From assembly GCA_910577575.1 (NCBI GenBank), contig CAJTOG010000005.1, forward strand, positions 9,188 through 73,187: a stretch of 64,000 bases of DNA. The letters run 5' to 3'. The position numbers and the translations under genes were made by a program. The stretch is from an uncultured Ruminococcus sp. (GTDB taxonomy: Bacteria; Bacillota; Clostridia; Oscillospirales; Ruminococcaceae). Positions 1-12,216 of this stretch are shown piece after piece (position 1 is the first letter of the stretch; the number at the start of each line of letters is the position of its first letter). The notes beneath the pieces were generated by a model. That model saw nothing but the letters and a program-made list of their open reading frames with translations. It was not told the DNA's origin and made no database searches.

Positions 1-278
1 CCGAAACCGAAAAAACTTGGATTTTTTTCACATTCTCCTGCAATGAACTTATTAATAGACTTTACCTGGTGCGGAACTGTAGCTGTTGAGCATACAAGAT
101 ATTTTGAAACTCCGATATTGTTTCCGCCCTCAATAAGCTTCTGGGATACTCCTATACTGTCCATATGCAAATCATAGAATCTTCCTGTATTTGCAGTGGC
201 GTTTTCTGCTATTTTCTCAGGGAAAATATGAGCATGAGCGTCAATGATTTCATATTTGCCGTAAATTTCCGAATCCAT
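1..278 (-). CDS. Amidohydrolase-family (TIM-barrel metal-dependent hydrolase) protein. Only the N-terminal 92 codons are present; the 3' end lies beyond the window start.
   Basis: Absent from the ORF track because it runs off the edge. My own minus-strand translation from the ATG at 276-278 gives MDSEIYGKYEIIDAHAHIFPEKIAENATANTGRFYDLHMDS...NPSFFGFG, open to position 1. The IDxHxHxFP start is typical of amidohydrolase_2-type enzymes. A GAGAGG Shine-Dalgarno-like sequence lies about 9 nt upstream. Confidence 0.5.
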   Translation of the reverse strand, partial: MDSEIYGKYEIIDAHAHIFPEKIAENATANTGRFYDLHMDSIGVSQKLIEGGNNIGVSKYLVCSTATVPHQVKSINKFIAGECEKNPSFFGF

Positions 279-357
279 TCAAAAAACCTCTCTTTTAGTA
301 AATGCTGTATTTATTATATCACTTTCCCTGACAATTGTCAATTGTTTCACAAAATTT

Positions 358-1485
358 TCATAACCTGGATTTAAAGTCATCATAGCAGAATGTTTTTAAA
401 GTTACAAGATTTCCATCCGGTTTATTTAATATAATTGACGGCAAGGGCATACCATTAAAAGTATTGTTTTTAACCATCGAGTATATTGCCATATCACCAA
501 ACACAAGCTTATCTCCTATATTTAACGGATTATCAAATGAATACTCACCAATAGAATCTCCCGCAAGGCAGGTCTGTGAACCAAGACGATAAGTATATTG
601 CTTTTCTCCTGATTTACCTGAATCCTGAAGCGGAGGGCGATACGGCATTTCCAGCACATCAGGCATATGACAGGCTGCCGATGTGTCAAGAATAGCTATA
701 GGCATATCGTTTTCAATAATGTCAAGAACTTCGGTCACAAGATATCCTGCATTCAGTGCGACAGCTTCACCTGGTTCAAGAAATACTTCAAGTCCGTATT
801 TTTCCTGTATATGTTTAATACAGCCTTCAAGCAACGGAATATCATAGTCACTTCTTGTTATATGATGTCCGCCACCGAAATTAATCCACTCCATTTTTTC
901 AAGTACATCGCCGAACTTTTCTTCAACAGCATCAAGTGTCTTTTTGAGGTCATCTGAATTCTGTTCGCATAAAGTATGAAAATGCAGACCTGTTATACCA
1001 TATAAATTACTTCTGTCAAAGTTTTTATCAATAATTCCGAGACGTGACTTTGGCGAACAAGGGTCATATATTTCATGCCCCTCCTGTGTTGAACATTCCG
1101 GATTTATTCTTAATCCGATTTTTTTGCCTGCCCCCAGCACTTTATCCCGATATTTATCAAGCTGACCAAAAGAATTAAAAATTATATGGTCACAGTAAGA
1201 AATAATTTCATCAATTTCACTTTCACGGTAAGCAGCAGAAAAAACATGATTTTCCTTACCCATTTTCTCATAACCGAGTCTCGCCTCATAAAGCCCGCTA
1301 CAAGCTGTTCCTGAAATATAATTCCCTATCAGATTATAAACATGATAACATGAAAAAGCTTTCTGTGCAAGCAGGATTTTACAGCCTGTGCGTTCCTGAA
1401 CACCTTTGAGAATTTCAAGATTGTGTATTAACTTCTCCTCATCAATTACATAGCAGGGAGTTTTTATTTTTTCCTTGTCAATCAT
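358..1485 (-). CDS. nspC: Carboxynorspermidine/carboxyspermidine decarboxylase (CANSDC)
   Basis: The translation MIDKEKIKTPCYVIDEEKLIHNLEIL...GGGHHITR...CLAGD has the layout of the alanine-racemase-fold PLP decarboxylase NspC. I chose the start at 1485 (AGGAG 7 nt upstream) over the track start at 1521. Confidence 0.85.
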   Translation of the reverse strand: MIDKEKIKTPCYVIDEEKLIHNLEILKGVQERTGCKILLAQKAFSCYHVYNLIGNYISGTACSGLYEARLGYEKMGKENHVFSAAYRESEIDEIISYCDHIIFNSFGQLDKYRDKVLGAGKKIGLRINPECSTQEGHEIYDPCSPKSRLGIIDKNFDRSNLYGITGLHFHTLCEQNSDDLKKTLDAVEEKFGDVLEKMEWINFGGGHHITRSDYDIPLLEGCIKHIQEKYGLEVFLEPGEAVALNAGYLVTEVLDIIENDMPIAILDTSAACHMPDVLEMPYRPPLQDSGKSGEKQYTYRLGSQTCLAGDSIGEYSFDNPLNIGDKLVFGDMAIYSMVKNNTFNGMPLPSIILNKPDGNLVTLKTFCYDDFKSRL

Positions 1486-1657
1486 TTTTACTCCTTTCGG
1501 ACACAGAATATTTTTCAGCAATATCTCAGATACTTCATATCTTTGTATTCATAATCAGAAACCTTTTTAAAAAACATTTTCTCTCTGAATCATAGCATAT
1601 TCATGGTATCTGACATCTTTTTTATACTTCAATTCTATTTTCTGAACAAACAGCATA

Positions 1658-1852
1658 TCAGTTGTCATTTTCAATAGAAATATATTCTATCCGTGATATG
1701 CGGATAATATGGTCTGTACTGTAATCATCTGTAAGAAGAATCCAGCCGTTGCCGATTTCCCTTATTTTACCCTCAACTACATCATCCCGCACGCTGACAG
1801 AACATTCCTTGTTAAGATAGCGTGCTATTATGTCTTCAACTTTTACAATCAT
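1658..1852 (-). CDS. Small hypothetical protein (64 aa), possibly an Sm-like beta-barrel. Paralogue of the 1879-2109 gene.
   Basis: AGGGTGA Shine-Dalgarno sequence 5 nt upstream of the ATG. Shares the motif G-x-GWI(L/V)L-x-(D/E)D...II-x-I-x-x-(I/V)-x-YI with its neighbour. Sits between the two ASA-route polyamine genes. Confidence 0.6.
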   Translation of the reverse strand: MIVKVEDIIARYLNKECSVSVRDDVVEGKIREIGNGWILLTDDYSTDHIIRISRIEYISIENDN

Positions 1853-1878
1853 TTTTTCACCCTAACATTTATTTGCGG

Positions 1879-2109
1879 TCAAATTTTAATATAGGTAACA
1901 TTTGCTATATTGATTATCCTTCTACAATCGTCCTCTCTGAGTACAATCCAGCCTTTGCCGACTTTTTCAAGATTACCCTTGATACTTTCCGCATAGCCAT
2001 AGCCATTATCATGAACTTCCATAACATTAAAACATACAGTTATCTTTTTACCGATATATTTGGTCAACTCTACCTCAATTTCCATGTTATCACCAATATC
2101 ATTGAACAT
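1879..2109 (-). CDS. Small hypothetical protein (76 aa), paralogue of the 1658-1852 gene
   Basis: AAGGGAG Shine-Dalgarno sequence 8 nt upstream. Begins 18 nt after the upstream stop codon. C-terminal KVGKGWIVLREDDCRRIINIANVTYIKI aligns with EIGNGWILLTDDYSTDHIIRISRIEYISI in the neighbour. Confidence 0.6.
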   Translation of the reverse strand: MFNDIGDNMEIEVELTKYIGKKITVCFNVMEVHDNGYGYAESIKGNLEKVGKGWIVLREDDCRRIINIANVTYIKI

Positions 2110-2127
2110 AAATATTGCTCCCTTCGG

Positions 2128-3330
2128 TTAATCAACAAGAACAGGATTAAAATCCTCTTCCCATGGAAGTCCCCATTTATTAAGTTCTTCCATGAACGGG
2201 TCAGGGTCAAATTCTTCAATATTATAAACACCTGCTTTATTCCATTTTCCTGTCATAATCATCATTGCACCAATCATTGCAGGTACTCCAGTAGTATAAG
2301 AAATAGCCTGTGAACCCACTTCTTTATAGCATTCCTGATGGTCGCAGATATTATAAAGATAATAAGTTTTATCCTTACCATCTTTTTTGCCACGGAATAT
2401 ACAGCCGATATTTGTCTTGCCGATTGTTCTCGGGCCGAGTGATGCAGGGTCAGGAAGTACAGCCTTTAGAAACTGCAACGGCACTATCTCCTTTCCTTCG
2501 TACATAATAGGTTCAATTGATGTCATGCCTACATTTTCAAGGCATTTAAGATGAGTAAGATAACTCTGTCCGAAAGTCATGAAAAACCTTATACGTTTTA
2601 TGCCCTTGATATTGAGTGCAAGCGATTCCAGCTCCTCATGGTGAAGCAGATACATATCCTTTTCGCCTACTCCCTTGAAATTATATACACGCTTGATTTC
2701 CATTGGTTCAGTTTCAACCCATTTGCCGTCTTCAATATAACTTCCTTTTGCCGATACCTCACGGATATTGATTTCAGGATTGAAATTAGTCGCAAACGGA
2801 TAGCCATGGTCACCGCCGTTACAGTCAAGAATGTCAATATAATTAATTTCATCAAATTCATGCTTCATGGCATAAGCAGAAAATACTCCTGTTACACCGG
2901 GGTCAAAACCGCTTCCGAGAAGTGCAGTGATACCTGCCTGCTCAAATTTTTCACGGTAAGCCCACTGCCATTTATACTCAAATTTAGCTGTGTCAAGCGG
3001 TTCATAGTTTGCAGTATCAACATAATGAGTCTTGGTTGCAAGACAAGCGTCCATGATAGTCAAATCCTGATAAGGAAGTGCAAGATTCAAAACAACATCG
3101 GGTTTATAGCTGTTGATTAATTCAATCAGTTCATCAACATTGTCTGCATTTACCTGAGCTGTTTCAATAACTGTACTGGTATTCGGCTGTAGTTTATCTT
3201 TAAGGGCATCACACTTTGATTTGGTACGGCTTGCAATCATAATACCATCAAAAACTTCACTGTTCTGGCAGCACTTGTGTATTGCGACGGATGCAACTCC
3301 ACCGCAGCCAATAATCATACATTTTCCCAT
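2128..3330 (-). CDS. Carboxynorspermidine/carboxyspermidine synthase (dehydrogenase), saccharopine-dehydrogenase family (CANSDH/CASDH)
   Basis: N-terminal Rossmann motif IIGCGGVASVAIHK. Also GFDPGVTGVF, GDHGYPFATNFNPEIN, LPDPASLGP and AISYTTGVPA, which closely match the Vibrio CANSDH sequence as I recall it. Confidence 0.85.
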   Translation of the reverse strand: MGKCMIIGCGGVASVAIHKCCQNSEVFDGIMIASRTKSKCDALKDKLQPNTSTVIETAQVNADNVDELIELINSYKPDVVLNLALPYQDLTIMDACLATKTHYVDTANYEPLDTAKFEYKWQWAYREKFEQAGITALLGSGFDPGVTGVFSAYAMKHEFDEINYIDILDCNGGDHGYPFATNFNPEINIREVSAKGSYIEDGKWVETEPMEIKRVYNFKGVGEKDMYLLHHEELESLALNIKGIKRIRFFMTFGQSYLTHLKCLENVGMTSIEPIMYEGKEIVPLQFLKAVLPDPASLGPRTIGKTNIGCIFRGKKDGKDKTYYLYNICDHQECYKEVGSQAISYTTGVPAMIGAMMIMTGKWNKAGVYNIEEFDPDPFMEELNKWGLPWEEDFNPVLVD

Positions 3331-3354
3331 TTTTTCAATCTCCTTTATATTTTA

Positions 3355-4059
3355 TCAACAGCAGTCCCAATTATAGAGAACGTCACTGAAATCAAGATTT
3401 TTAAGTTTTTTTGAATTAATAAAGAAATTTCCTATTCCCGAATCGCCCCACATTACTCTGTCTTCGCCATTATAGCCATCTGTATCAAGCTGAAACAGCA
3501 GAAAGTCATATTTCTCAAGTTTTTCATCATTTCTTGGGTCTGTCTGAGTAAAGTACGGGTAACCGCCGACTTTATGTCCTGAATTTTCGTTCCATTCTTC
3601 TTCACTAAGGTCCGAACAATAATCTATATATCTGTTTTCAGATTTATCAAAATCCATGCTGTATTCTCCGAAAACAGGCATATATTCTTCTTCATCATAT
3701 TCATTTTTTACGAATTTTTCAAAAATCTCCTCTTCTGTAACTGTTTTATCAATTTCCGGATAATAAATTATACGGAAAGTATTCTGATTTGTCGGATTAT
3801 CAAAATCCAAGCCCGATATCTCATCATTGAGAATCCAGAATTGCAAAAGTCCAGTTTTCGGAAATTCATCAAGTTGAATTTTTCTGCAATCTATCTGTGC
3901 AAGAAGTCTGAGTTGATTTCCGTCTTCAGCAACTGGAAAATTTCCGTTATGAGGGATATATCCCAGTCCGCCAACCTTACTCTCAAAAATTTCCGGCTTT
4001 GTATTTGTGAGTTTTATTTTCATACATGGTTTAACATTATCATTTTTATACGTATTCAT
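3355..4059 (-). CDS. DUF1963 (YwqG-like) family protein
   Basis: Motifs GGLGYIPHNG...LLAQIDC...GLLQFW...HKVGGYPYFTQ...MWGDSGIGNFFI are characteristic of DUF1963. Confidence 0.7.
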   Translation of the reverse strand: MNTYKNDNVKPCMKIKLTNTKPEIFESKVGGLGYIPHNGNFPVAEDGNQLRLLAQIDCRKIQLDEFPKTGLLQFWILNDEISGLDFDNPTNQNTFRIIYYPEIDKTVTEEEIFEKFVKNEYDEEEYMPVFGEYSMDFDKSENRYIDYCSDLSEEEWNENSGHKVGGYPYFTQTDPRNDEKLEKYDFLLFQLDTDGYNGEDRVMWGDSGIGNFFINSKKLKNLDFSDVLYNWDCC

Positions 4060-4060
4060 T

Positions 4061-4561
4061 TTATCTTATCTCCTTATTATTATTTCTGGAAACAGAAACA
4101 TATATAATTATGAAAACAATAAAAAATACACCGCTTACAACCAAAAAAATAATTCCGATAAAATTTGTCGTTTTGTCTGAAGGTACATAAAATTTCCTTG
4201 GATTTTCCGGATTAATTTTAAGCTCCACAATATCACCGATTTCAAATTTCGGAGGATTTGAAGCAGTATTGCTAACAACATCATACTCTATACCATTATA
4301 AGTATATATGAATCTTGGTCTATAAACTATTGATATATGACGACGTTTGTTTTTCCGTTTTATTTCAGACTTTTCAGGTAAATTCTCAATTACTGTAGCC
4401 GTAACTGATTCCGTACAACTGTAAGACTTTATTTTCTGATATGAAAGTGTAATAGCTCCGGCAACCGATAATATAATAGCAACTATAAGAAAAATAATTG
4501 GTATAAATTTCGGATTAAGATTATTGCCACTTCTTAATTTAATAATATTTCTTCTATACAT
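4061..4561 (-). CDS. DUF3592-like two-TM membrane protein
   Basis: TM helix, then a beta-rich segment (YRPRFIYTYNGIEYDV...GDIVELKINPENP), then a second TM helix. This is the DUF3592 architecture. Confidence 0.5.
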   Translation of the reverse strand: MYRRNIIKLRSGNNLNPKFIPIIFLIVAIILSVAGAITLSYQKIKSYSCTESVTATVIENLPEKSEIKRKNKRRHISIVYRPRFIYTYNGIEYDVVSNTASNPPKFEIGDIVELKINPENPRKFYVPSDKTTNFIGIIFLVVSGVFFIVFIIIYVSVSRNNNKEIR

Positions 4562-4576
4562 AGCAAATTTATTCTA

Positions 4577-5431
4577 TTATCTTGACATTGCAAGAAGCAT
4601 TTCTCTTATAATCTTGCACGCAACAGCTGTTGAAGTTCCTGACTGGTCATAATGCGGACTTAATTCATTCACATCACAGCCCACTATATCAAGTTCACTG
4701 CATACAAGAGTTACAGCCTTCCTAAGCTCATCAAAAGTAACTCCGCCGGCTTCCGGAGTACCCGTTCCGCAGAATATCGACGGGTCAAGCACATCCAAAT
4801 CAAGAGTAAAATACACGTTCTTTCCCTTGAGTTTTTCAACTGTTTCAGCAAGTCCGTCAAAATTGAACTTATGCATTTCAGTATGCTTTTTGGCAAATAT
4901 AAATTCTTCTTTGTCTCCGCTTCTGATGCCAAACTGGAATATATGGCCGTCTCCGACAAGCTCATGACATCTTCTCAGTACACACGCATGAGACAGCTGC
5001 TGACCTAAATAATCTTCACGCAAATCAGCATGGGCATCAAAATGAATTATATACAAATCCTCATATTTTTCTTTTACAGCCATGACAGAACCAAGAGTTA
5101 CGAGATGCTCTCCGCCAATCATGAACGGCAGTTTTTTATCACTGAGAATTATATCAGAACGCATTGCTATATCGGCTACTGCACGGCGTACACTGCCGAA
5201 AGGAAGTTCTAAATCCCCACTGTCAAAATAGCTGTAATCTGTCATATCCTTGTCCTGATACGGACTGTATGTTTCAATACCAAAGCTTTCTGAACGTATT
5301 GCAGAAGGTGCAAATCGTGTGCCGGGACGAAAACTTGTTGTACTGTCATAACCTGCTCCGAAAATAACTATTCCGGACTCCTCATATTCTGCATCGCAGG
5401 CAATAAAAGTCTGTATATTTTTATTCAACAT
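4577..5431 (-). CDS. speB: Agmatinase (or aminopropylagmatine ureohydrolase), arginase family
   Basis: Mn-binding motifs GGEHLVT, HFDAHADLR and LDLDVLDP. Overlaps the speE stop by 11 nt. Confidence 0.85.
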   Translation of the reverse strand: MLNKNIQTFIACDAEYEESGIVIFGAGYDSTTSFRPGTRFAPSAIRSESFGIETYSPYQDKDMTDYSYFDSGDLELPFGSVRRAVADIAMRSDIILSDKKLPFMIGGEHLVTLGSVMAVKEKYEDLYIIHFDAHADLREDYLGQQLSHACVLRRCHELVGDGHIFQFGIRSGDKEEFIFAKKHTEMHKFNFDGLAETVEKLKGKNVYFTLDLDVLDPSIFCGTGTPEAGGVTFDELRKAVTLVCSELDIVGCDVNELSPHYDQSGTSTAVACKIIREMLLAMSR

Positions 5432-6272
5432 CTCTCAGCATCTCCTCAACATAATTAGGCAGTGCAAATGCTCCTGCATGAAGTTTGGTATTATAATACT
5501 TTGTTTTCATTGCAAGCATATTCCATTTTGTCGCATTCAAATCATGGACAGGATGATATTTTTTGGACGCAAAACCAAAAAGCCAGTGACCTGACGGATA
5601 AGTCGGTATATGTGCCTGATACACTCTGCTTATCGGAAAACTTTCAACTATCCGCTTATGTGAACGCTGCATAGCCGCCGCATCTTCATCATAAAACGGA
5701 CTTTCATGCTGATTCACCATAATTCCGTCTTCACGGAGAGCTTTGTTACAGCTTCCATAAAATTCCTTGGTAAACAAACCCTCTCCCGGTCCGAACGGGT
5801 CAGTTGAATCGACTATAATAACATCATACTTATTTTCACACCGACGGATAAATTTAACACCGTCCTCATAATAGATATGAACTCTTTCATCACCTAAACG
5901 ACAGGCAGTAGTCGGCAGAAATTTCCTGCTTACTTCAATAACAAGCTCGTCAATCTCTACTAAATCAATGCTTTCAACAGTCGGATAACGTGTTAACTCA
6001 CGGATTACCCCACCGTCTCCTGCACCGATAACAAGTATGTTTTTCGGATTCGGATGAACAGCCATAGGAATATGAGTTATCATTTCATGATAAATAAATT
6101 CATCTTTTTCAGTAAGCATCATATAGCCATCAAGCGTAAGGAATCTGCCGAATTCCTTTGAATCAAAAACATCAATACGTTGAAATTCACTTTTGCCCGT
6201 ATAAAGCTGTCTGTCTACTTTAATAGAAAATTTGACATTCGGAGTATGTCTCTCCGTAAACCATAATTCCAT
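5421..6272 (-). CDS. speE: Spermidine synthase (aminopropyltransferase)
   Basis: MELWFTE...LDG...VLVIGAGDGGVIRE...VDSTDPFGP signature. Start moved to 6272 (AAGGAG Shine-Dalgarno sequence). Confidence 0.9.
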   Translation of the reverse strand: MELWFTERHTPNVKFSIKVDRQLYTGKSEFQRIDVFDSKEFGRFLTLDGYMMLTEKDEFIYHEMITHIPMAVHPNPKNILVIGAGDGGVIRELTRYPTVESIDLVEIDELVIEVSRKFLPTTACRLGDERVHIYYEDGVKFIRRCENKYDVIIVDSTDPFGPGEGLFTKEFYGSCNKALREDGIMVNQHESPFYDEDAAAMQRSHKRIVESFPISRVYQAHIPTYPSGHWLFGFASKKYHPVHDLNATKWNMLAMKTKYYNTKLHAGAFALPNYVEEMLRDVE

Positions 6273-6320
6273 AAAAATTCTCCTTAAAATTATTCTTTCA
6301 GAAATTTTTATTTTCATAAA

Positions 6321-6809
6321 TCAGAATTTATTATCTGAATCAAGCACAATCTTCATATTATGATACTTTGAAATCACATCTTTAAATCCAATTGACTTGT
6401 ACAGGTTATATCCTGCATCAGTTGCTTTCAGTTCAACAAAGTCAAGACCCATTTTTGCCGAATCAGAAAGCAATAACTTAATCAGTTTGCCGGCAATACC
6501 TTTTTTTCTGTATTCAGGTCTTGTATAAACATTCAATACTGTACCGGTTATACCATTAACAAATGTAGGGTTCGGGGTCTTTTCCATAATGTATAAAAAA
6601 CAACACCCTATAATTTTTTCTTTTTCTCTGCAAACATAAACAAATAAATCCTTGTTAAGATGGTTATGATAATAACTTGGCAATCTTTCAGAAATCTGAA
6701 TTATTTGCGACTCTGAAATATCTTGATAATCTTCAGTCAAATACTCTATTCTTAATTCAACCAGCGAATTTAAATCATTAATACCTGCCTTTTCAAAAAT
6801 TATAATCAA
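6321..6809 (-). CDS. GNAT-family N-acetyltransferase, possibly a polyamine acetyltransferase given its context
   Basis: GNAT motif A, YTRPEYRKKGIAGKLI. Embedded between speA and speE. Confidence 0.7.
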   Translation of the reverse strand: MIIIFEKAGINDLNSLVELRIEYLTEDYQDISESQIIQISERLPSYYHNHLNKDLFVYVCREKEKIIGCCFLYIMEKTPNPTFVNGITGTVLNVYTRPEYRKKGIAGKLIKLLLSDSAKMGLDFVELKATDAGYNLYKSIGFKDVISKYHNMKIVLDSDNKF

Positions 6810-6828
6810 TCACCTCTTTTATTTTTAT

Positions 6829-8274
6829 TTATTTCAATACATTTAGTCTTTCAATATTTATATCTTCCGTCCCTGTCATCTGACAACCCTTTTCTTTGGC
6901 ATACCTGATATAGTCTATTATATCCTGAGTGATAAGTTCGCCAGGGGCAAGAATCGGGATTCCGGGCGGATAACACATAACAAACTCCGTGCATACCCTG
7001 CCGACTGCTTCGTCAAGAGAAAGTGAAATTTTATCTGCATAAAATGCACGTCTAGGAGTTTCTGCAACTATCGGAGAAATATATTCCTGTGTAAGCATAT
7101 CGGCACCGGATTTTCCGAAACGTCTTTTAATTTCTGACATCGCACTTATAAGCCTTTCAATATCACGCTTTCTGTCGCCTACCGAAAGATATGCAAGGAT
7201 ATTGCCTATATCACCAAATTCAATCTGTATGTCATATTCATCACGGAGCAAATCATATACTTCAATTCCGGCAAGACCTATCGGAAGAGTATATATACTA
7301 AGTTTTGAAACATCAAAGTCATAAATGCTGTCACCGTTGATTAATTCTTTTGAATATGCATAATATCCACCTATTGAATTTATTTCAGAGCGTGCATATT
7401 CAGCCATTTCAACAGTCTGTGCAAATATTTCACGTCCGCTCAGTGCAAGTCTTTTACGTGAAATATCAAGGCTTGACAAAAGAAGATAAGATGCACTTGT
7501 TGTTTGCGTCAGATTCACCACCTGACGCATATAGTCTGAATTTATATTCTTTCCCATAAGCAGAAACGAACTCTGTGTAAGGCTTCCGCCGGATTTGTGC
7601 ATACTTACCGAAGCTATATCTGCCCCTGCGTCCATAGCTGTTATCGGGAATTTTTCACCAAAATAAAAATGTGTTCCGTGTGCCTCATCAACAAGAACAA
7701 GCATATCATGTTCATGTGCAAGCTCCGTAATTTTTTTCAGGTCTGAACATATACCATAATAAGTCGGATTATTTACCATAATCGCTTTAGCCTGCGGATT
7801 TTCCTTTATAGCCTGTTCAACCTGCTCAACCGACATTCCGAGGGCTATGCCAAGCTGTTTATTAACGTCAGGATTAACATATACGGGTATAGCTCCGGTA
7901 AGAATAAGGGCATTTATTGCACTTCTGTGGACATTTCTCGGCATTATTATTTTATCTCCGCTTTTACAGGCATACATAATCATGCTCTGCACTGCCGATG
8001 TAGTGCCGCCAACCATAAAAAAAGCATTTGCAGCTCTGAATGCTTCCGCCGCAAGATATTCCGCATCTCTGATTACTGATACAGGATGGCAGAGATTATC
8101 CAGAGGCTTCATAGAGTTTACATCAACATTCATGCAGTCCTCGCCTAAGAACTCTGTAAGTTCCATATTGCCGCGTCCACGCTTGTGTCCAGGTACATCG
8201 AACGGAACTACTCTCATGCGTCTGAAACGACGCAGAGCTTCATAAATCGGGGCATCAATCTGAGAAAGAGACAT
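6829..8274 (-). CDS. speA: Arginine decarboxylase, Orn/Lys/Arg decarboxylase fold-I PLP family (Bacillus SpeA type)
   Basis: FDVPGHKRG, the [18 protein letters not shown]-lysine motif and [10 protein letters not shown]. Strong resemblance to B. subtilis SpeA. Start chosen at 8274 ([14 protein letters not shown]). Confidence 0.85.
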
Positions 8275-9037
8275 TTCCAAACACATTCCTTCCACTGAAT
8301 ATTTCAATCATTTCCCTTCTTAAAGCATTTGATATATCAAGTCTGCTTCTTGGAGAAAGTTCACGGACATCTGTATTAAAAAGATAATTCTGCAATTCAA
8401 TTTCCTTTATTAACATTTTTGTATGAAACATATTTGCCTGATATACATTTACATCAATAACATCATATTTATCAAGGGTTGCTTCATCTATATAATTCTG
8501 AATCGACGTAATATCATGGTCTATGAAAATTTTTTCTCCGTCCAGATTTCTTGTAAAGCCACGCACCCTGTAATCCATAGTGATAATATCCGAGTCGAAA
8601 CTTCCAATCAGATAATCAAGAGCAGTAAGCGGAGTTATCTTGCCACAGGTAGCAACATCTATATCAACACGGAAAGTTGCTATATTTGTATCCGGATGAT
8701 ATTCAGGATAGGTATGAACAGTTACATGACTTTTATCAAGATGGGCAACAGTTTCACTTCCGCCTGCCGGAATCATAGTATCATCAGCAATTAGAAAAGT
8801 TGCAGAAGCACCTTGTGGGTCGTAATCCTGTCGGGAAATACTCAGCACCTGTGCCCCAATCATATTTGTAAGATGAGTCATGATATCAGTGATACGCTCA
8901 GAATTGTAAACCTCATCAACATAGGCGATATAATCCAATTGAGCTTTAGGGGTTCTTGCATAGCAGACATCGTAAATATTAAAGCTCAGGGATTTTGTCA
9001 GGTTATTAAATCCATAAAGCTTAAGCTTATTTTCCAT
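8255..9037 (-). CDS. speD: S-adenosylmethionine decarboxylase proenzyme (E. coli-type, class 1B)
   Basis: [24 protein letters not shown] and the self-processing site [16 protein letters not shown] closely match E. coli SpeD. Start at 9037 (GAGGTG Shine-Dalgarno sequence). Confidence 0.9.
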
Positions 9038-9151
9038 AATATACACCTCATGTTTAAAATCAAAAAAACACGCACAGACTTAATCAGCCCATACGTGCGG
9101 TGAATGCATAGCAACAGTGCTGAAACCGAAGCTTCTTTTGCAATTTAATTT

Positions 9152-9180
9152 ATTTTATCATAAATTTACTGATTTGTCAA
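9152..9180 (-). promoter_or_regulatory. Sigma-A-type promoter of the polyamine operon (TTGACA-17 nt-TAAAAT with TGn extension)
   Basis: The minus strand reads TTGACAaatcagtaaatttaTGaTAAAAT, about 110 nt upstream of the speD ATG. Confidence 0.5.
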
Positions 9181-9213
9181 TAGTTAAACACAAAATTTTA
9201 TTTATTTTCATGC

Positions 9214-9249
9214 AAAAAACCCTGCATTCACATAATACTGAATGCAGGG
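9214..9249 (-). terminator. Rho-independent terminator downstream of tRNA-Arg
   Basis: The minus strand reads CCCTGCATTCAgtattatgTGAATGCAGGG followed by TTTTTT. Confidence 0.7.
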
Positions 9250-9255
9250 ACTTCA

Positions 9256-9332
9256 TGGCGTGCCTGGAGGGATTCGAACCCCCGACCTACTGGTTCGTAG
9301 CCAGTCACTCTATCCAGCTGAGCTACAAGCAC
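9256..9332 (-). tRNA. tRNA-Arg (anticodon ACG)
   Basis: The reverse complement GTGCTTGTAGCTCAGCTGGATAGAGTGACTGGCTACGAACCAGTAGGTCGGGGGTTCGAATCCCTCCAGGCACGCCA folds as a cloverleaf. It has a 7-bp acceptor stem, anticodon loop CTACGAA, a GGTTCGAAT T-loop and an encoded CCA. Confidence 0.9.
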
Positions 9333-9466
9333 ATCGTTTCAACAATATATATTATATATCATTTTTTGTAAAAAGTCAAGCTTTTTTTTGTATTTTGTAT
9401 GATTTTCCAATTTTGTCAAAAATAAATGAATATTTTTGTAAATTACAACAATTTCATAAAATTCTA

Positions 9467-9495
9467 TTGACAAATCTGGATTTATATGATATAAT
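9467..9495 (+). promoter_or_regulatory. Consensus sigma-A promoter for tRNA-Lys (TTGACA-17 nt-TATAAT)
   Basis: Exact hexamers with a 17-nt spacer. The -10 element ends 12 nt before the tRNA 5' end. Confidence 0.6.
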
Positions 9496-9507
9496 AATTA
9501 ACGTTGT

Positions 9508-9583
9508 GAGACATTAGCTCAGCCGGTAGAGCATACGCCTTTTAAGCGTAGGGTCGAGGGTTCAAATCCCTCATGTCTCACCA
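9508..9583 (+). tRNA. tRNA-Lys (anticodon TTT)
   Basis: GAGACATTAGCTCAGCCGGTAGAGCATACGCCTTTTAAGCGTAGGGTCGAGGGTTCAAATCCCTCATGTCTCACCA. The acceptor stem GAGACAT/ATGTCTC pairs, the anticodon loop is CTTTTAA, and CCA is encoded. Confidence 0.9.
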
Positions 9584-9611
9584 TTTTTTATTTTTTCAAA
9601 AAATCAAAAAC

Positions 9612-9647
9612 AAAAGACTGTCTGATAAAAGGCAGTCTTTTGTTTTT
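9612..9647. terminator. Bidirectional rho-independent terminator shared by tRNA-Lys (+) and glgA (-)
   Basis: AAAAGACTG...CAGTCTTTT stem with T-runs flanking it on both strands. Confidence 0.7.
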
Positions 9648-11066
9648 TTATTCATTAATCAATTCTTTAAAAATCTTGATATAGTCATCTGCTGAATTAT
9701 TCCAGCCAAAATCGCAGCTCATGGACCTGACAATAAGTTCATTCCAGCGGGGTTTATTGTAATAATCCCGTTTTGCACGATATACAGCATTAAGCATATC
9801 GTCAGCATCATATGTTTTAAAAGTAAAACCGTTGCCGTATTCTCCTCCGTTATCCCTCACCGTGTCACGCAGACCACCTGTTTCATGTACAATCGGCGGA
9901 GTACCATATCTCATGGAAATCATCTGTGCAAGTCCGCAGGGTTCTGTCTGTGAAGGCATAAGAAACATATCTGCACCGGCATAAATCTTATGAGAAAGTT
10001 CCGGGAAAAAACCAGTAGTCATAGATACTCTTTCGGGATAACGTTTAGCCATTTCAAAAAAGAAATCCTCATAAATTTTTTCACCGCTTCCAAGTATGGC
10101 AAACTTCATACCGTTTCTTATTATTTCTTCAAAAACACTTCGTATAAGTTCAATTCCCTTATGTTTTACAAGTCTTGAAACAATGCCGATAACAGGTGCA
10201 TTATCAGCATCAAAGCCAAGTTCGTTCAATAACCCATTCCTGCATTTCATCTTTCCTGAAATATCATCTTTTGAATAATGCCAGTCTATAAACTCATCTT
10301 TTTCAGGATTATAAAAATCCATGTCAATTCCGTTCAGAATACCTTTCAGTTTATGCTGTTTTGTGATAAGTATCCTGTCAAGACCATATGCATACCATGG
10401 GTCAAGAATTTCATTGGCATAGCTTGGCGAAACGGTAATAATTCTGTCAGCCGTTTCTATGGCACCTTTCATAAGGTTTATATATCCGTCGTATTCAACA
10501 AGCCCGGAATGATATGAAGGAATCCCCATAAGTTCATTAAGTACTTCAATGCCATATCTTCCCTGATATTCAATATTATGAATTGTAAAAACAGTTCTGA
10601 TATTACTATAACCCTGCTGATATTTATAATAAACCTGATAATAAACAGGTATTAGAGCAGTCTGCCAGTCATTGCAGCTTATAACATCAGGCTTAAAATC
10701 TATGTGCCTGAGCATTTCGAGAACTGCTCTGCTGAAAAATACAAAGCGTTCACAATCGTCATAAAATCCATAAAGACCGTCTCTGTTGAAATAGTATTCA
10801 TTATCAATAAAGAAATATGTAACGCCATTTTTTTCAGCAGTATATATTCCGCAGTACTGTTTTCGCCATGAAACATCAACAGTTATATTTGTCAAAAAAT
10901 TCATATATTTACGGAGTTCAGGATTAATATCTTTATAAAGTGGAATGACAACAGCACAATTATTTCCTTTTTCGCTTATTACTTTTGGCAGTGTACCGGC
11001 AACATCAGCAAGACCACCGGAGGCTGCATATGGCACAGCCTCACTGGCAGCAAAAAGTATATTCAT
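9648..11066 (-). CDS. glgA: Glycogen synthase (ADP-glucose type)
   Basis: MNILFAASEAVPYAASGGLADV N-terminus (KxGGL motif). GT5/GT1 layout. Start chosen at 11066. Confidence 0.9.
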   Translation of the reverse strand: MNILFAASEAVPYAASGGLADVAGTLPKVISEKGNNCAVVIPLYKDINPELRKYMNFLTNITVDVSWRKQYCGIYTAEKNGVTYFFIDNEYYFNRDGLYGFYDDCERFVFFSRAVLEMLRHIDFKPDVISCNDWQTALIPVYYQVYYKYQQGYSNIRTVFTIHNIEYQGRYGIEVLNELMGIPSYHSGLVEYDGYINLMKGAIETADRIITVSPSYANEILDPWYAYGLDRILITKQHKLKGILNGIDMDFYNPEKDEFIDWHYSKDDISGKMKCRNGLLNELGFDADNAPVIGIVSRLVKHKGIELIRSVFEEIIRNGMKFAILGSGEKIYEDFFFEMAKRYPERVSMTTGFFPELSHKIYAGADMFLMPSQTEPCGLAQMISMRYGTPPIVHETGGLRDTVRDNGGEYGNGFTFKTYDADDMLNAVYRAKRDYYNKPRWNELIVRSMSCDFGWNNSADDYIKIFKELINE

Positions 11067-11091
11067 AAAATCGCTACCTTTCGTCAAGTGG

Positions 11092-12216
11092 TCATATTTT
11101 GCTGTTTTTATCTACATAAAACGGACAATTTTTTGTACCTGTCAGTACTCCTTCATCACTTACTTCAACATTCTTATCCATAATCACTGAAGATATACTG
11201 CAATTGTTTCCGATTTTAGTACCCTGCATAATAATGGAATCCTTAACAACCGTATCCTTACCGATTTTAACGCCTCTGAATATAATTGAATTTTCAACAG
11301 TACCCTCAACGATACAGCCATCAGCAATAAGTGAATTCTTGATATTTGATTCAAGACCATAAAGTGCAGGGGCATTGTCGCCTACCTTCGTGAATACAGG
11401 CATATTTTTCTTAAAGAGAGAATTTCTTGTTTCAGTATCAAGAAGCATCATATTTGCATGATAATAATTATCCTTGCTGTCTATACGCACAAAGAAATCC
11501 TTATGCTCATAACCCATAATTTTATATTCACTGTTCTTATTTTGAAGAATTTCTCTTGTAAAGCTGTAAAGATTTCTGCTTGATGCATCAAAAACAATTT
11601 TCCTTAAGAAGTCCTTATTTATAATAAGCATATCAAGCCACTGATTGCATTCTCCTGAAATCTGCGGAGCAACAAGAACATCATTGATAGTATTATCGTC
11701 TCCGAATTCAAGAATTGTTGAACATTTGTCCTTTTCGCAGTCATAATGGCTTTTTTTGTAGATAAGGGTAATATCAGCTCCCGTTTCCTGATGCTGACGA
11801 AGTACAGGATTGAAGTCGATAGTAGTAACAACATCACAGTTTGAAAGAATTACATACTGAGCCTTTGAATGCTCAACAAATCCCCACATATTGCTGAGTG
11901 CGTCAAGCCTACCCTTATAAATTCCGCCTGTCTGACTGTAAGGCGGAAGAAGATGCATACCGCCTTTTTTACGTGCCAAATCCCAGTCTCTTCCTGAACC
12001 GAGATGGTCAAGAAGTGAACCATAGTTTGATTTGGTAATTACACCTACTTCAGTAATACCCGAATTAACGAAATTTGAAAGCGGAAAATCAATAAGCCTG
12101 TAACGACCGCCGAAAGGAATTGACCCCATTGTTCTCTGTTTTGTAAGCTCGCTGACATATGAGTCATGCATACTTGCAAAAATCAGACCTAATACATTAT
12201 AATTAACACTGCTCAT
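11092..12216 (-). CDS. glgD: Glucose-1-phosphate adenylyltransferase, GlgD regulatory subunit
   Basis: Paralogue of GlgC ([19 protein letters not shown]-terminal left-handed beta-helix) that lacks the GGxGxRL activator-loop start. In the typical Firmicute glgC-glgD position. Confidence 0.8.
   Translation of the reverse strand: MSSVNYNVLGLIFASMHDSYVSELTKQRTMGSIPFGGRYRLIDFPLSNFVNSGITEVGVITKSNYGSLLDHLGSGRDWDLARKKGGMHLLPPYSQTGGIYKGRLDALSNMWGFVEHSKAQYVILSNCDVVTTIDFNPVLRQHQETGADITLIYKKSHYDCEKDKCSTILEFGDDNTINDVLVAPQISGECNQWLDMLIINKDFLRKIVFDASSRNLYSFTREILQNKNSEYKIMGYEHKDFFVRIDSKDNYYHANMMLLDTETRNSLFKKNMPVFTKVGDNAPALYGLESNIKNSLIADGCIVEGTVENSIIFRGVKIGKDTVVKDSIIMQGTKIGNNCSISSVIMDKNVEVSDEGVLTGTKNCPFYVDKNSKI

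Follow-up and report, generated by a model that had tools for sequence, protein, structure and literature searches.

We analyzed a stretch of 64,000 nucleotides from an uncultured Ruminococcus sp. (contig CAJTOG010000005.1; referred to here as the window) that carries, in a single minus-strand operon at positions 358-9037, genes for both the decarboxylated S-adenosylmethionine (dcSAM) route and the aspartate semialdehyde (ASA) route of polyamine synthesis. Six conserved genes of this operon probably encode the hybrid polyamine pathway that has been described for Clostridium leptum by Li, Baniasadi, Liang, Phillips and Michael (Li et al., 2025, J Biol Chem 301:108390; PMC11999265). Homologs of S-adenosylmethionine decarboxylase (AdoMetDC, SpeD), polyamine aminopropyltransferase (APT), carboxyspermidine dehydrogenase (CASDH) and carboxyspermidine decarboxylase (CASDC) are found together in one co-directional cluster with a putative arginine decarboxylase (ADC) and a ureohydrolase (SpeB). 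An initial annotation had listed eleven co-directional genes in the order speD, ADC (given as speA), GNAT, APT (speE), speB, DUF3592, DUF1963, CASDH (given as CANSDH), two small open reading frames (ORFs) and CASDC (given as CANSDC), and this arrangement was borne out by the ORF list and by Pfam and NCBIfam profile searches. The tiny or overlapping junctions that it described were confirmed for all but the last: with the starts set by a public gene caller the distances from speD to CASDC are -20, 19, 48, -11, 15, 1, 24, 18, 26 and 172 nt. Ribosome-binding sites of the GGAG/GAGG type precede ten of the eleven genes, DUF3592 being the one that lacks such a site.

The catalytic motifs are intact in all six enzymes. 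The product of speD (8255-9037, 260 aa) is an E. coli-type pyruvoyl S-adenosylmethionine decarboxylase (TIGR03331, 394 bits, cutoff 256) with an intact self-cleavage site, LDKS/H. The ADC gene (6829-8274) overlaps speD by 20 nt and encodes an Orn/Lys/Arg decarboxylase of the aspartate aminotransferase (AAT) fold and the B. subtilis SpeA type (481 aa; PF01276 with 246 bits, and PF03711) that contains the pyridoxal phosphate (PLP)-lysine motif SMHKS. The APT (5421-6272, 283 aa; NF002010, 400 bits) carries the motifs GAGDGG and DSTDP. The gene for the agmatinase-family ureohydrolase, speB (4577-5431, 284 aa; TIGR01230, 274 bits), overlaps that for APT by 11 nt, and its product has the Mn-ligand motifs GGEH, DAHADLR and DLDVLDP. 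The CASDH homolog (2128-3330, 400 aa), which consists of the saccharopine dehydrogenase domains PF03435 and PF16653, contains the motifs DTANYE, KFEY and HEE with the residues N108, E110, F117 and H231-E232. The last gene (358-1485, 375 aa; TIGR01047 nspC, 489 bits, cutoff 409) encodes a PLP-dependent decarboxylase of the carboxy(nor)spermidine family with the PLP-lysine motif AQKAF, and the protein has 65% identity (546 bits) with the C. leptum CASDC (PDB 9EAF, EDO61992). For the initial annotation, a catalytically dead module would have counted against its reading; by these motifs neither module is dead.

Li et al. (2025) examined genomes that encode both modules, that of C. leptum among them. 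The CASDH/CASDC pair of C. leptum converted agmatine to N1-aminopropylagmatine, and hence to spermidine, in amounts of N1-aminopropylagmatine about 150-fold those obtained with the pair from A. tumefaciens, and it formed neither spermine nor thermospermine. The choice of substrate was found to be set by CASDH and not by CASDC. The APT of C. leptum is a highly specific spermine synthase (spermine 5.8e8 versus thermospermine 3.4e4), its spermine lying far above the empty vector control. The authors' hybrid route runs from arginine via agmatine, carboxyaminopropylagmatine and N1-aminopropylagmatine to spermidine in ASA-dependent fashion, and from spermidine to spermine in a dcSAM-dependent step. 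The accession numbers given for ADC (EDO61987), APT (EDO61989), the carboxyaminopropylagmatine dehydrogenase CAPADH (EDO61991) and the corresponding decarboxylase CAPADC (EDO61992) are nearly consecutive, implying that these enzymes are encoded in one cluster. Operon structure was not discussed by Li et al. (2025), and the words "operon" and "cluster" are absent from the paper.

The link from C. leptum to the window was made with the C. leptum CASDC sequence from the crystal structure paper (PDB 9EAF, PMC11866407). Used as query, it led to a metagenome contig (L087; L-numbers are our labels for the loci of relatives) that encodes a CASDC 98.9% identical to EDO61992. The gene order on this contig is ADC-APT-speB-CAPADH-CAPADC, the contig stops before any speD, and protein lengths of 284, 399 and 376 aa agree with Table S1 of Li et al. 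(2025). The window and this C. leptum-lineage contig have the core gene order in common, with protein identities of 84% for APT, 84.5% for CASDH, 74.5% for ADC, 66.5% for speB and 65% for CASDC. The same six enzyme families thus occur in the C. leptum pathway and in the window, including the same AAT-fold type of ADC and an agmatine-type CASDH. Unlike the C. leptum set, the window operon has three junctions that together contain five additional genes and the remnant of another, and it stems from a different, uncultured, "Ruminococcus"-like lineage of rumen and gut. As to agmatine supply, the AAT-fold decarboxylase is the counterpart of the C. leptum-lineage protein that Li et al. (2025) termed ADC, and by this homology it would be an arginine decarboxylase yielding agmatine. 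The APT is a putative spermine synthase, which may aminopropylate agmatine as well.

Among PDB entries the window CASDH is closest to 4RL6 from S. pneumoniae, which carries the same motifs; DTANYE, KFEY and HEE are shared by 4RL6 and by 8H4Z, which we take to be the H. pylori enzyme. The 4RL6 protein is a CAPADH, and both the S. pneumoniae and the H. pylori enzymes have been characterized as CAPADHs (Xi et al., 2023, Sci Adv 9:eadj9075; PMC10599626). A signature restricted to CAPADHs comprises N104, F113 and E228 in Synechocystis numbering, and the same positions are I/W/D (I113/W126/D241) in CASDH from A. tumefaciens and V/E/D in the carboxynorspermidine dehydrogenase (CANSDH) from V. cholerae (Xi et al., 2023). 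The window protein has N108, F117 and E232 at these positions and is therefore of the CAPADH type. It scores 407 bits with the model for V. cholerae-type CANSDH (NF043000), well below the cutoff of 800, and has N/F/E instead of V/E/D; nor does it share the features of the putrescine/spermidine-type CASDH, which in A. tumefaciens are the residues I113/W126/D241 and the company of ornithine decarboxylase (ODC). The suggestion of the initial annotation that the second module may work on agmatine is supported by the N/F/E signature and by the 84.5% identity with the CAPADH of the C. leptum lineage.

Residues E60 and R151 (Synechocystis numbering) are conserved only in N1-aminopropylagmatine ureohydrolases (Xi et al., 2023). 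In the window protein an Arg follows the DAHxD motif (DAHADLR), as it does in 3PZL from T. volcanium (DAHSDFR), while the E. coli SpeB sequence reads DAHTDTY. The "IETY" stretch with E53 is aligned to "LESY" in 3PZL, and E. coli SpeB differs at the aligned positions. The T. volcanium enzyme is regarded as an N1-aminopropylagmatine ureohydrolase by Xi et al. (2023). We infer that the window ureohydrolase converts N1-aminopropylagmatine to spermidine and possibly also agmatine to putrescine.

The residues of CASDH bear, in addition, on the idea put first in the initial annotation, namely that SpeD and SpeE produce spermidine, which CASDH and CASDC would then extend. Spermine or thermospermine would arise by carboxyaminopropylation of spermidine, a reaction found in Agrobacterium, Brucella and Paracoccus. 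An ASA-dependent route to these tetraamines via carboxyspermine does exist among alpha-proteobacteria, in A. tumefaciens, B. abortus as well as P. denitrificans (Li et al., 2025), and the CASDH and CASDC homologs of this route, as proposed for those of the window, add aminopropyl groups without SAM. However, the alpha-proteobacterial enzymes act on putrescine and spermidine, the CASDHs being of the putrescine type with I/W/D (I113/W126/D241 in A. tumefaciens) where the window has N/F/E, and they accompany ODC and not ADC; an APT has not been reported for any of the three species (Li et al., 2025). Furthermore, the C. leptum pair, to which the window CASDH and CASDC are related with 84.5% and 65% identity, does not produce spermine or thermospermine, and spermidine is not accepted by the Synechocystis CAPADH (Xi et al., 2023). 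Extension of the first module's product by the second is hence highly improbable; in C. leptum the step from spermidine to spermine is carried out by APT with dcSAM. More generally, the initial annotation had argued that one module does not simply duplicate the other and that a tetraamine may be formed. Both ideas agree with the biochemistry of the C. leptum orthologs, with the preferred direction of extension reversed. Its further option of two different triamines found no support.

Plain redundancy has more in its favor. Both modules would then deliver only spermidine, one from dcSAM and the other from ASA, with APT as an ordinary spermidine or N1-aminopropylagmatine synthase, and the cell would gain robustness when SAM or ASA becomes limiting. 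This fits the finding that the APT also falls into the speE equivalog TIGR00417 of NCBIfam (341 bits) and that its closest solved relatives are the spermidine synthases 1IY9 from B. subtilis and 1INL from T. maritima. Xi et al. (2023) interpreted such clusters in Firmicutes as two spermidine routes, and the APT from Sporomusa ovata, whose genome encodes both modules, yielded no spermine (Li et al., 2025). On the other hand, the window APT is 84% identical to the APT of the C. leptum lineage, and the C. leptum enzyme made spermine far in excess of the empty vector. Spermine synthase activity was found for four of the five tested APTs from genomes encoding both modules (Li et al., 2025). The tight six-gene operon has, moreover, been kept across many genera, which is a better fit to a division of labor than to a spare copy. 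We consider redundancy rather unlikely.

Several points weigh against the assignment of the window operon to the hybrid pathway. All product identities were derived from sequence, the substrate of ADC resting on homology in the window and in Li et al. (2025) alike, and the ureohydrolase may prefer either N1-aminopropylagmatine or agmatine. An identity of 84% between APTs would be no guarantee of product specificity. The S. ovata APT, from another genome with CASDH and CASDC, gave only spermidine (Li et al., 2025), and because of this counter-example genomic context alone is insufficient for calling a spermine synthase. APT, CAPADH and ADC of C. leptum were compared via the near-identical metagenome contig and not via the type strain. 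Li et al. (2025) state that exchange of intermediates between the modules has not been demonstrated in vivo. Finally, a strong terminator in the leader of the window operon, combined with the lack of a recognizable sensor, obscures how the operon is expressed.

The distribution of the gene set was assessed by mapping the eleven window proteins onto 80 species-representative loci, which were the closest matches to CASDH, did not include C. leptum and form a sample biased towards CASDHs similar to that of the window. In 60 of the 80 loci, speD, ADC and APT lie upstream of CASDH on the same strand, and 48 of these 60 also have speB. The remaining loci contain part of the set (6), none of it despite enough upstream sequence (5), or are located on contigs that are too short (9). 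Genera represented include Blautia, Fusicatenibacter, Faecalispora, Sporobacter and Parasporobacterium, together with one metagenome-assembled genome (MAG) of Acetobacterium. Outside the clade of the window the median gaps within the six-gene set are 1, 12.5, -11, 75 and 11 nt. The occurrence of the core order in 60 of 80 species loci is not due to chance, and together with the tight packing across genera it leads us to conclude that the combination of both routes in one operon is a conserved and widespread unit and no peculiarity of the window. Four loci (L030, L038, L079 and L081) show the order ADC-APT-(speB)-CASDH-CASDC with no speD nearby. The carboxyaminopropylagmatine (CAPA) pathway of Synechocystis and many other bacteria (Xi et al., 2023) likewise features an N/F/E-type CASDH, an adjoining CASDC, ADC and a ureohydrolase, as in the window. 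What distinguishes the window is that this module shares one operon with speD and APT; AdoMetDC and spermidine synthase genes accompany the CAPA genes in some clusters of Firmicutes (Xi et al., 2023, their Fig. 5).

We propose that the pathway would proceed as follows. The AAT-fold decarboxylase would form agmatine from arginine, and the CAPADH-type CASDH would condense agmatine with aspartate beta-semialdehyde at the expense of NADPH to carboxyaminopropylagmatine. Decarboxylation by CASDC would give N1-aminopropylagmatine, from which the ureohydrolase would split off urea to release spermidine. SpeD would provide dcSAM, with which the aminopropyltransferase would convert spermidine to spermine, agmatine being a possible starting substrate too. 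Bulk triamine would thereby be made by the cheaper, SAM-independent route and the tetraamine by the dcSAM route, with intermediates shared between the two. Transcription would start from a promoter at 9180-9152 and would have to pass the leader terminator, the sensing RNA with its ldcC motif having been lost in the lineage of the window. The five other genes would be variable passengers.

These five genes, which encode the GNAT, DUF3592 and DUF1963 proteins and two proteins of predicted Sm-like fold, reside at three junctions and are probably not part of the pathway. The GNAT acetyltransferase gene (6321-6809, 162 aa; GNAT Pfam families) is inserted between ADC and APT. The gene for the DUF3592 membrane protein (4061-4561, 166 aa; PF12158, 33.9 bits) sits between speB and CASDH together with that for a DUF1963/TYPP-domain protein of the YwqG family (3355-4059, 234 aa; PF09234, 203 bits). 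Between CASDH and CASDC lie the two small ORFs of 76 aa (1879-2109; DUF6897-like, PF21838 with 19.4 bits, below the cutoff of 23.9) and 64 aa (1658-1852; PF21838 with 21.8 bits and NF041655 with 22.5 bits, both below cutoff), which are paralogs with 34% identity. They are followed by the 172-nt gap, which the initial annotation had not accounted for. This gap contains the remnant (1521-1656) of a gene for a protein of about 215 aa, of which some 27 N-terminal and 23 C-terminal codons are left, joined by an internal deletion. The remnant was recognized by tblastn against the copies in L008 and L011 (E 8e-7 and 2e-10), and undamaged versions of the gene occupy this junction in L008, L011, L020 and L021. 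An internal promoter in this gap ahead of CASDC was considered and discarded, as the best candidate had only 9 of 12 matches and the gap is explained by the gene remnant.

Within the 80 species loci no GNAT gene was found in the operon, the single match (32% identity) lying on the opposite strand about 9 kb downstream of CASDH in L020. GNAT homologs with 77-78% identity are present at the ADC/APT junction of two further close relatives, L088 and L090. DUF1963 was detected in five of the 80 loci (41-62% identity) and in L088, DUF3592 only in the closest relatives among the 80 (26-48% identity), and the 64-aa ORF gave weak matches in three of the 80; the 76-aa ORF had no match in these 80 loci. 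Among loci of the clade whose CASDHs share 94% or more identity with that of the window, the median gaps are 550 nt for ADC/APT, 1220 nt for speB/CASDH and 852 nt for CASDH/CASDC, and the translationally coupled overlaps of speD/ADC (median -20 nt) and APT/speB (-11 nt) are never interrupted. The content of the junctions differs by species and includes up to five tandem DUF3592 paralogs, SMI1/KNR4, YbjQ, cyclophilin, a lipoprotein and the ~215-aa protein. One to five divergent tandem copies of DUF3592 occur at the speB/CASDH junction of relatives: four or five highly divergent genes are arranged in tandem at L007:6219-9047, L009:6249-9157 and L010:8003-9999, where the window has a single copy, and L007 and L009 each have one gene in which two DUF3592 domains are fused. 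In L092 (2655-9640, 6984 nt), with a CASDH 86% identical to that of the window, 14 unrelated small genes separate CASDH from CASDC, among them genes for two GNATs and for ABM, TfoX_C, Na_Ca_ex, R2K and SRPBCC domain proteins.

A function of the inserted genes in polyamine metabolism was weighed against these observations. The GNAT might acetylate spermidine or spermine for export or homeostasis, the DUF3592 protein might be an exporter or sensor, and the Sm-fold proteins might be partners or regulators of CASDH and CASDC. The initial annotation had taken the embedded GNAT as a hint at an acetylated product or a homeostatic valve, and it is true that GNAT homologs lie within the operon in three of four sampled lineages. 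DUF3592 copies recur at the speB/CASDH junction, and all 14 DUF6897-like ORFs found in the window and eight loci are situated between CASDH and CASDC; the rest of the 64-kb window contains no further copy. Nevertheless, all five genes are missing from most of the 60 full-operon loci. The content of the junctions varies between species whose CASDHs are 94-96% identical and extends to unrelated SMI1/KNR4, YbjQ and cyclophilin genes and, in the more distant L092, to genes for SRPBCC and ABM proteins; in the window itself one insert has decayed. The GNAT is a lineage-specific insert and matched neither SpeG nor PaiA, its best NCBIfam hit being rimI with 26.8 bits (cutoff 86); the best PDB match was the uncharacterized 3mgd, and SSAT2 (2bei) was marginal (E 0.008). 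A common position could go back to one insertion in an ancestor instead of indicating a function, and the exclusive location of the DUF6897-like ORFs between CASDH and CASDC may likewise be due to common descent. A role of the inserts in the pathway thus appears improbable.

The two small proteins are predicted to adopt an Sm/Hfq-like fold with an N-terminal helix and five bent strands. An AlphaFold2 model of the 64-aa protein, calculated from an alignment of two sequences, reached a pLDDT of 88.8, and its top Foldseek match was Hfq (3hfo; TM 0.77, rmsd 1.2 A, E 9e-4). A sequence search of the PDB with the same protein returned nothing significant, such that only the fold search was informative. 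None of the five accessory proteins matched the PADLOC models for defense systems, and inspection of the insertion junctions for cassette-like repeats revealed only short ones at chance level. DUF1963 corresponds to the TYPP/YwqG protein-interaction domain (PMC4275035), and an LXG-toxin locus has been described that includes DUF3592 (PMC12482557), which may be a slight hint at a toxin/immunity-type origin of the inserts. It is conceivable, although we consider it doubtful, that in the "Ruminococcus"-like clade the three junctions of a rigid housekeeping operon serve as a landing pad for passengers with fast turnover (tandem DUF3592, TYPP/DUF1963, SMI1/KNR4, Sm-fold DUF6897 and GNATs), or alternatively that the Sm-fold proteins are dedicated partners or RNA-binding regulators of the ASA module. 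Since several of the families are otherwise seen around LXG/polymorphic-toxin loci, orphan immunity-like or accessory genes might have co-opted the operon to secure their expression.

The single promoter at 9152-9180 named in the initial annotation was corroborated as a strong promoter-like site. The site, TTGACA-17-TAAAAT with a TG-extended -10 element on the minus strand, has 11 of 12 matches and lies in the sole true intergenic space, and L011 and L016 have homologous promoters upstream of their operon leaders; a scan for promoters by itself was weak (46 sites versus 38 +/- 7 in shuffled sequences). The 5' leader (9038-9151, about 110 nt) contains a feature that had escaped the initial annotation, a terminator-like 13-bp hairpin followed by U7 (9098-9068), which is placed between promoter and speD about 20 nt ahead of the speD ribosome-binding site. 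L010 has an almost identical hairpin, and in relatives the arms vary in sequence and yet stay complementary.

In relatives the terminator hairpin comes after a conserved RNA some 180 nt in length. Its 5' hairpin is the orphan ldcC motif, with L007, L013 and L057 matching RF02440 at 49-58 bits (gathering threshold 37.2), and an association of this motif with genes for decarboxylases and with polyamine genes has been described (Weinberg et al., 2017, NAR 45:10811; Rfam RF02440). The rest of the leader RNA extends in Clostridia for about 130 nt beyond the 54-nt Rfam model, is composed of multiple stems with compensatory changes in several hairpins, and appears to have remained undescribed so far. 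RNAalifold on a MAFFT alignment of the leaders captured just a portion of the visible structure, owing to misalignment of the variable hairpins. An nhmmer profile of the leader matched 43 loci (examples are L007:1003-1250, L013:4021-4302 and L075:5663-5844), always immediately upstream of the first gene of the operon and in one case directly before CASDH. The latter case, L085:9567-9740 from an Anaerobacillus MAG, has the leader RNA in front of a CASDH-CASDC pair without speD or APT, and we conclude from it that the RNA tracks polyamine synthesis in general and not the hybrid operon specifically. In three of the loci without a nearby speD (L030, L079 and L081) the conserved leader RNA stands immediately before ADC.

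The ldcC motif thus precedes the same operon in relatives of the window, but the window itself has no detectable copy. Neither the window nor its closest GNAT-bearing relatives matched the leader profile, and no RF02440 match was obtained for the window at E<=10. Left in the window are the promoter, some 35 nt from the 5' end of the leader, a short 3' piece and the downstream terminator; the core of the RNA is gone, and the leader is a decayed form of the ldcC-motif leader. The leaders of the close relatives L088 and L090 have been remodeled as well. Other candidates for control elements were discarded. Rfam searches for a riboswitch, covering 1-10000 at E<=1 and 9000-9260 at E<=10, returned only two tRNAs and noise. 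Attenuation by a leader peptide was considered in view of a 9-codon upstream ORF with its stop in the terminator loop and an AUG-GGC-UGA mini-ORF, neither of which is conserved; among relatives the leader hairpins vary in sequence, and an AUG is absent from most of them. A coding function of the conserved leader block is unlikely because a 1-nt indel falls within an invariant block (CTTGTGAAAGG versus CTTGTGAAACGG).

Upstream, the operon is delimited by a minus-strand tRNA-Arg(ACG) gene (9256-9332) with its own terminator (9249-9220), the boundary region spanning 9220-9332, and a divergent tRNA-Lys gene is also present upstream. No terminator was found 3' of CASDC, where the boundary is formed by a promoter-like site with 12 of 12 matches (313-341, minus strand) that belongs to the next gene (Amidohydro_2, start 278). 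Glycogen synthesis genes, glgA-like (9648-11087) and glgD/glgC-like NTP-transferase (11092-12216), follow upstream on the same strand, separated from the polyamine operon by the two tRNA genes. The exact cluster was found in public assemblies of an uncultured Clostridia MAG (GCA_949738975.1), and the species nearest to the window are "Ruminococcus sp." MAGs from rumen, horse and rabbit.

The arrangement in the window is therefore neither rare nor unexplained: the finding is real and already accounted for, and the window adds no new principle because experiments on an orthologous gene set, published in 2025, had answered the question of why two routes coexist. What is added here is that in Clostridia of gut and rumen the hybrid pathway takes the form of one compact operon with wide conservation, an aspect not discussed by Li et al. 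(2025), and that in one clade the junctions of this operon gain and lose unrelated small genes. In most relatives the operon is controlled by a large, conserved leader RNA of which the orphan ldcC motif is a part, and the set of operons is good material for identifying its ligand. The conservation of the operon lends support to the view that bacteria of this kind are a common source of microbial spermine in the gut.

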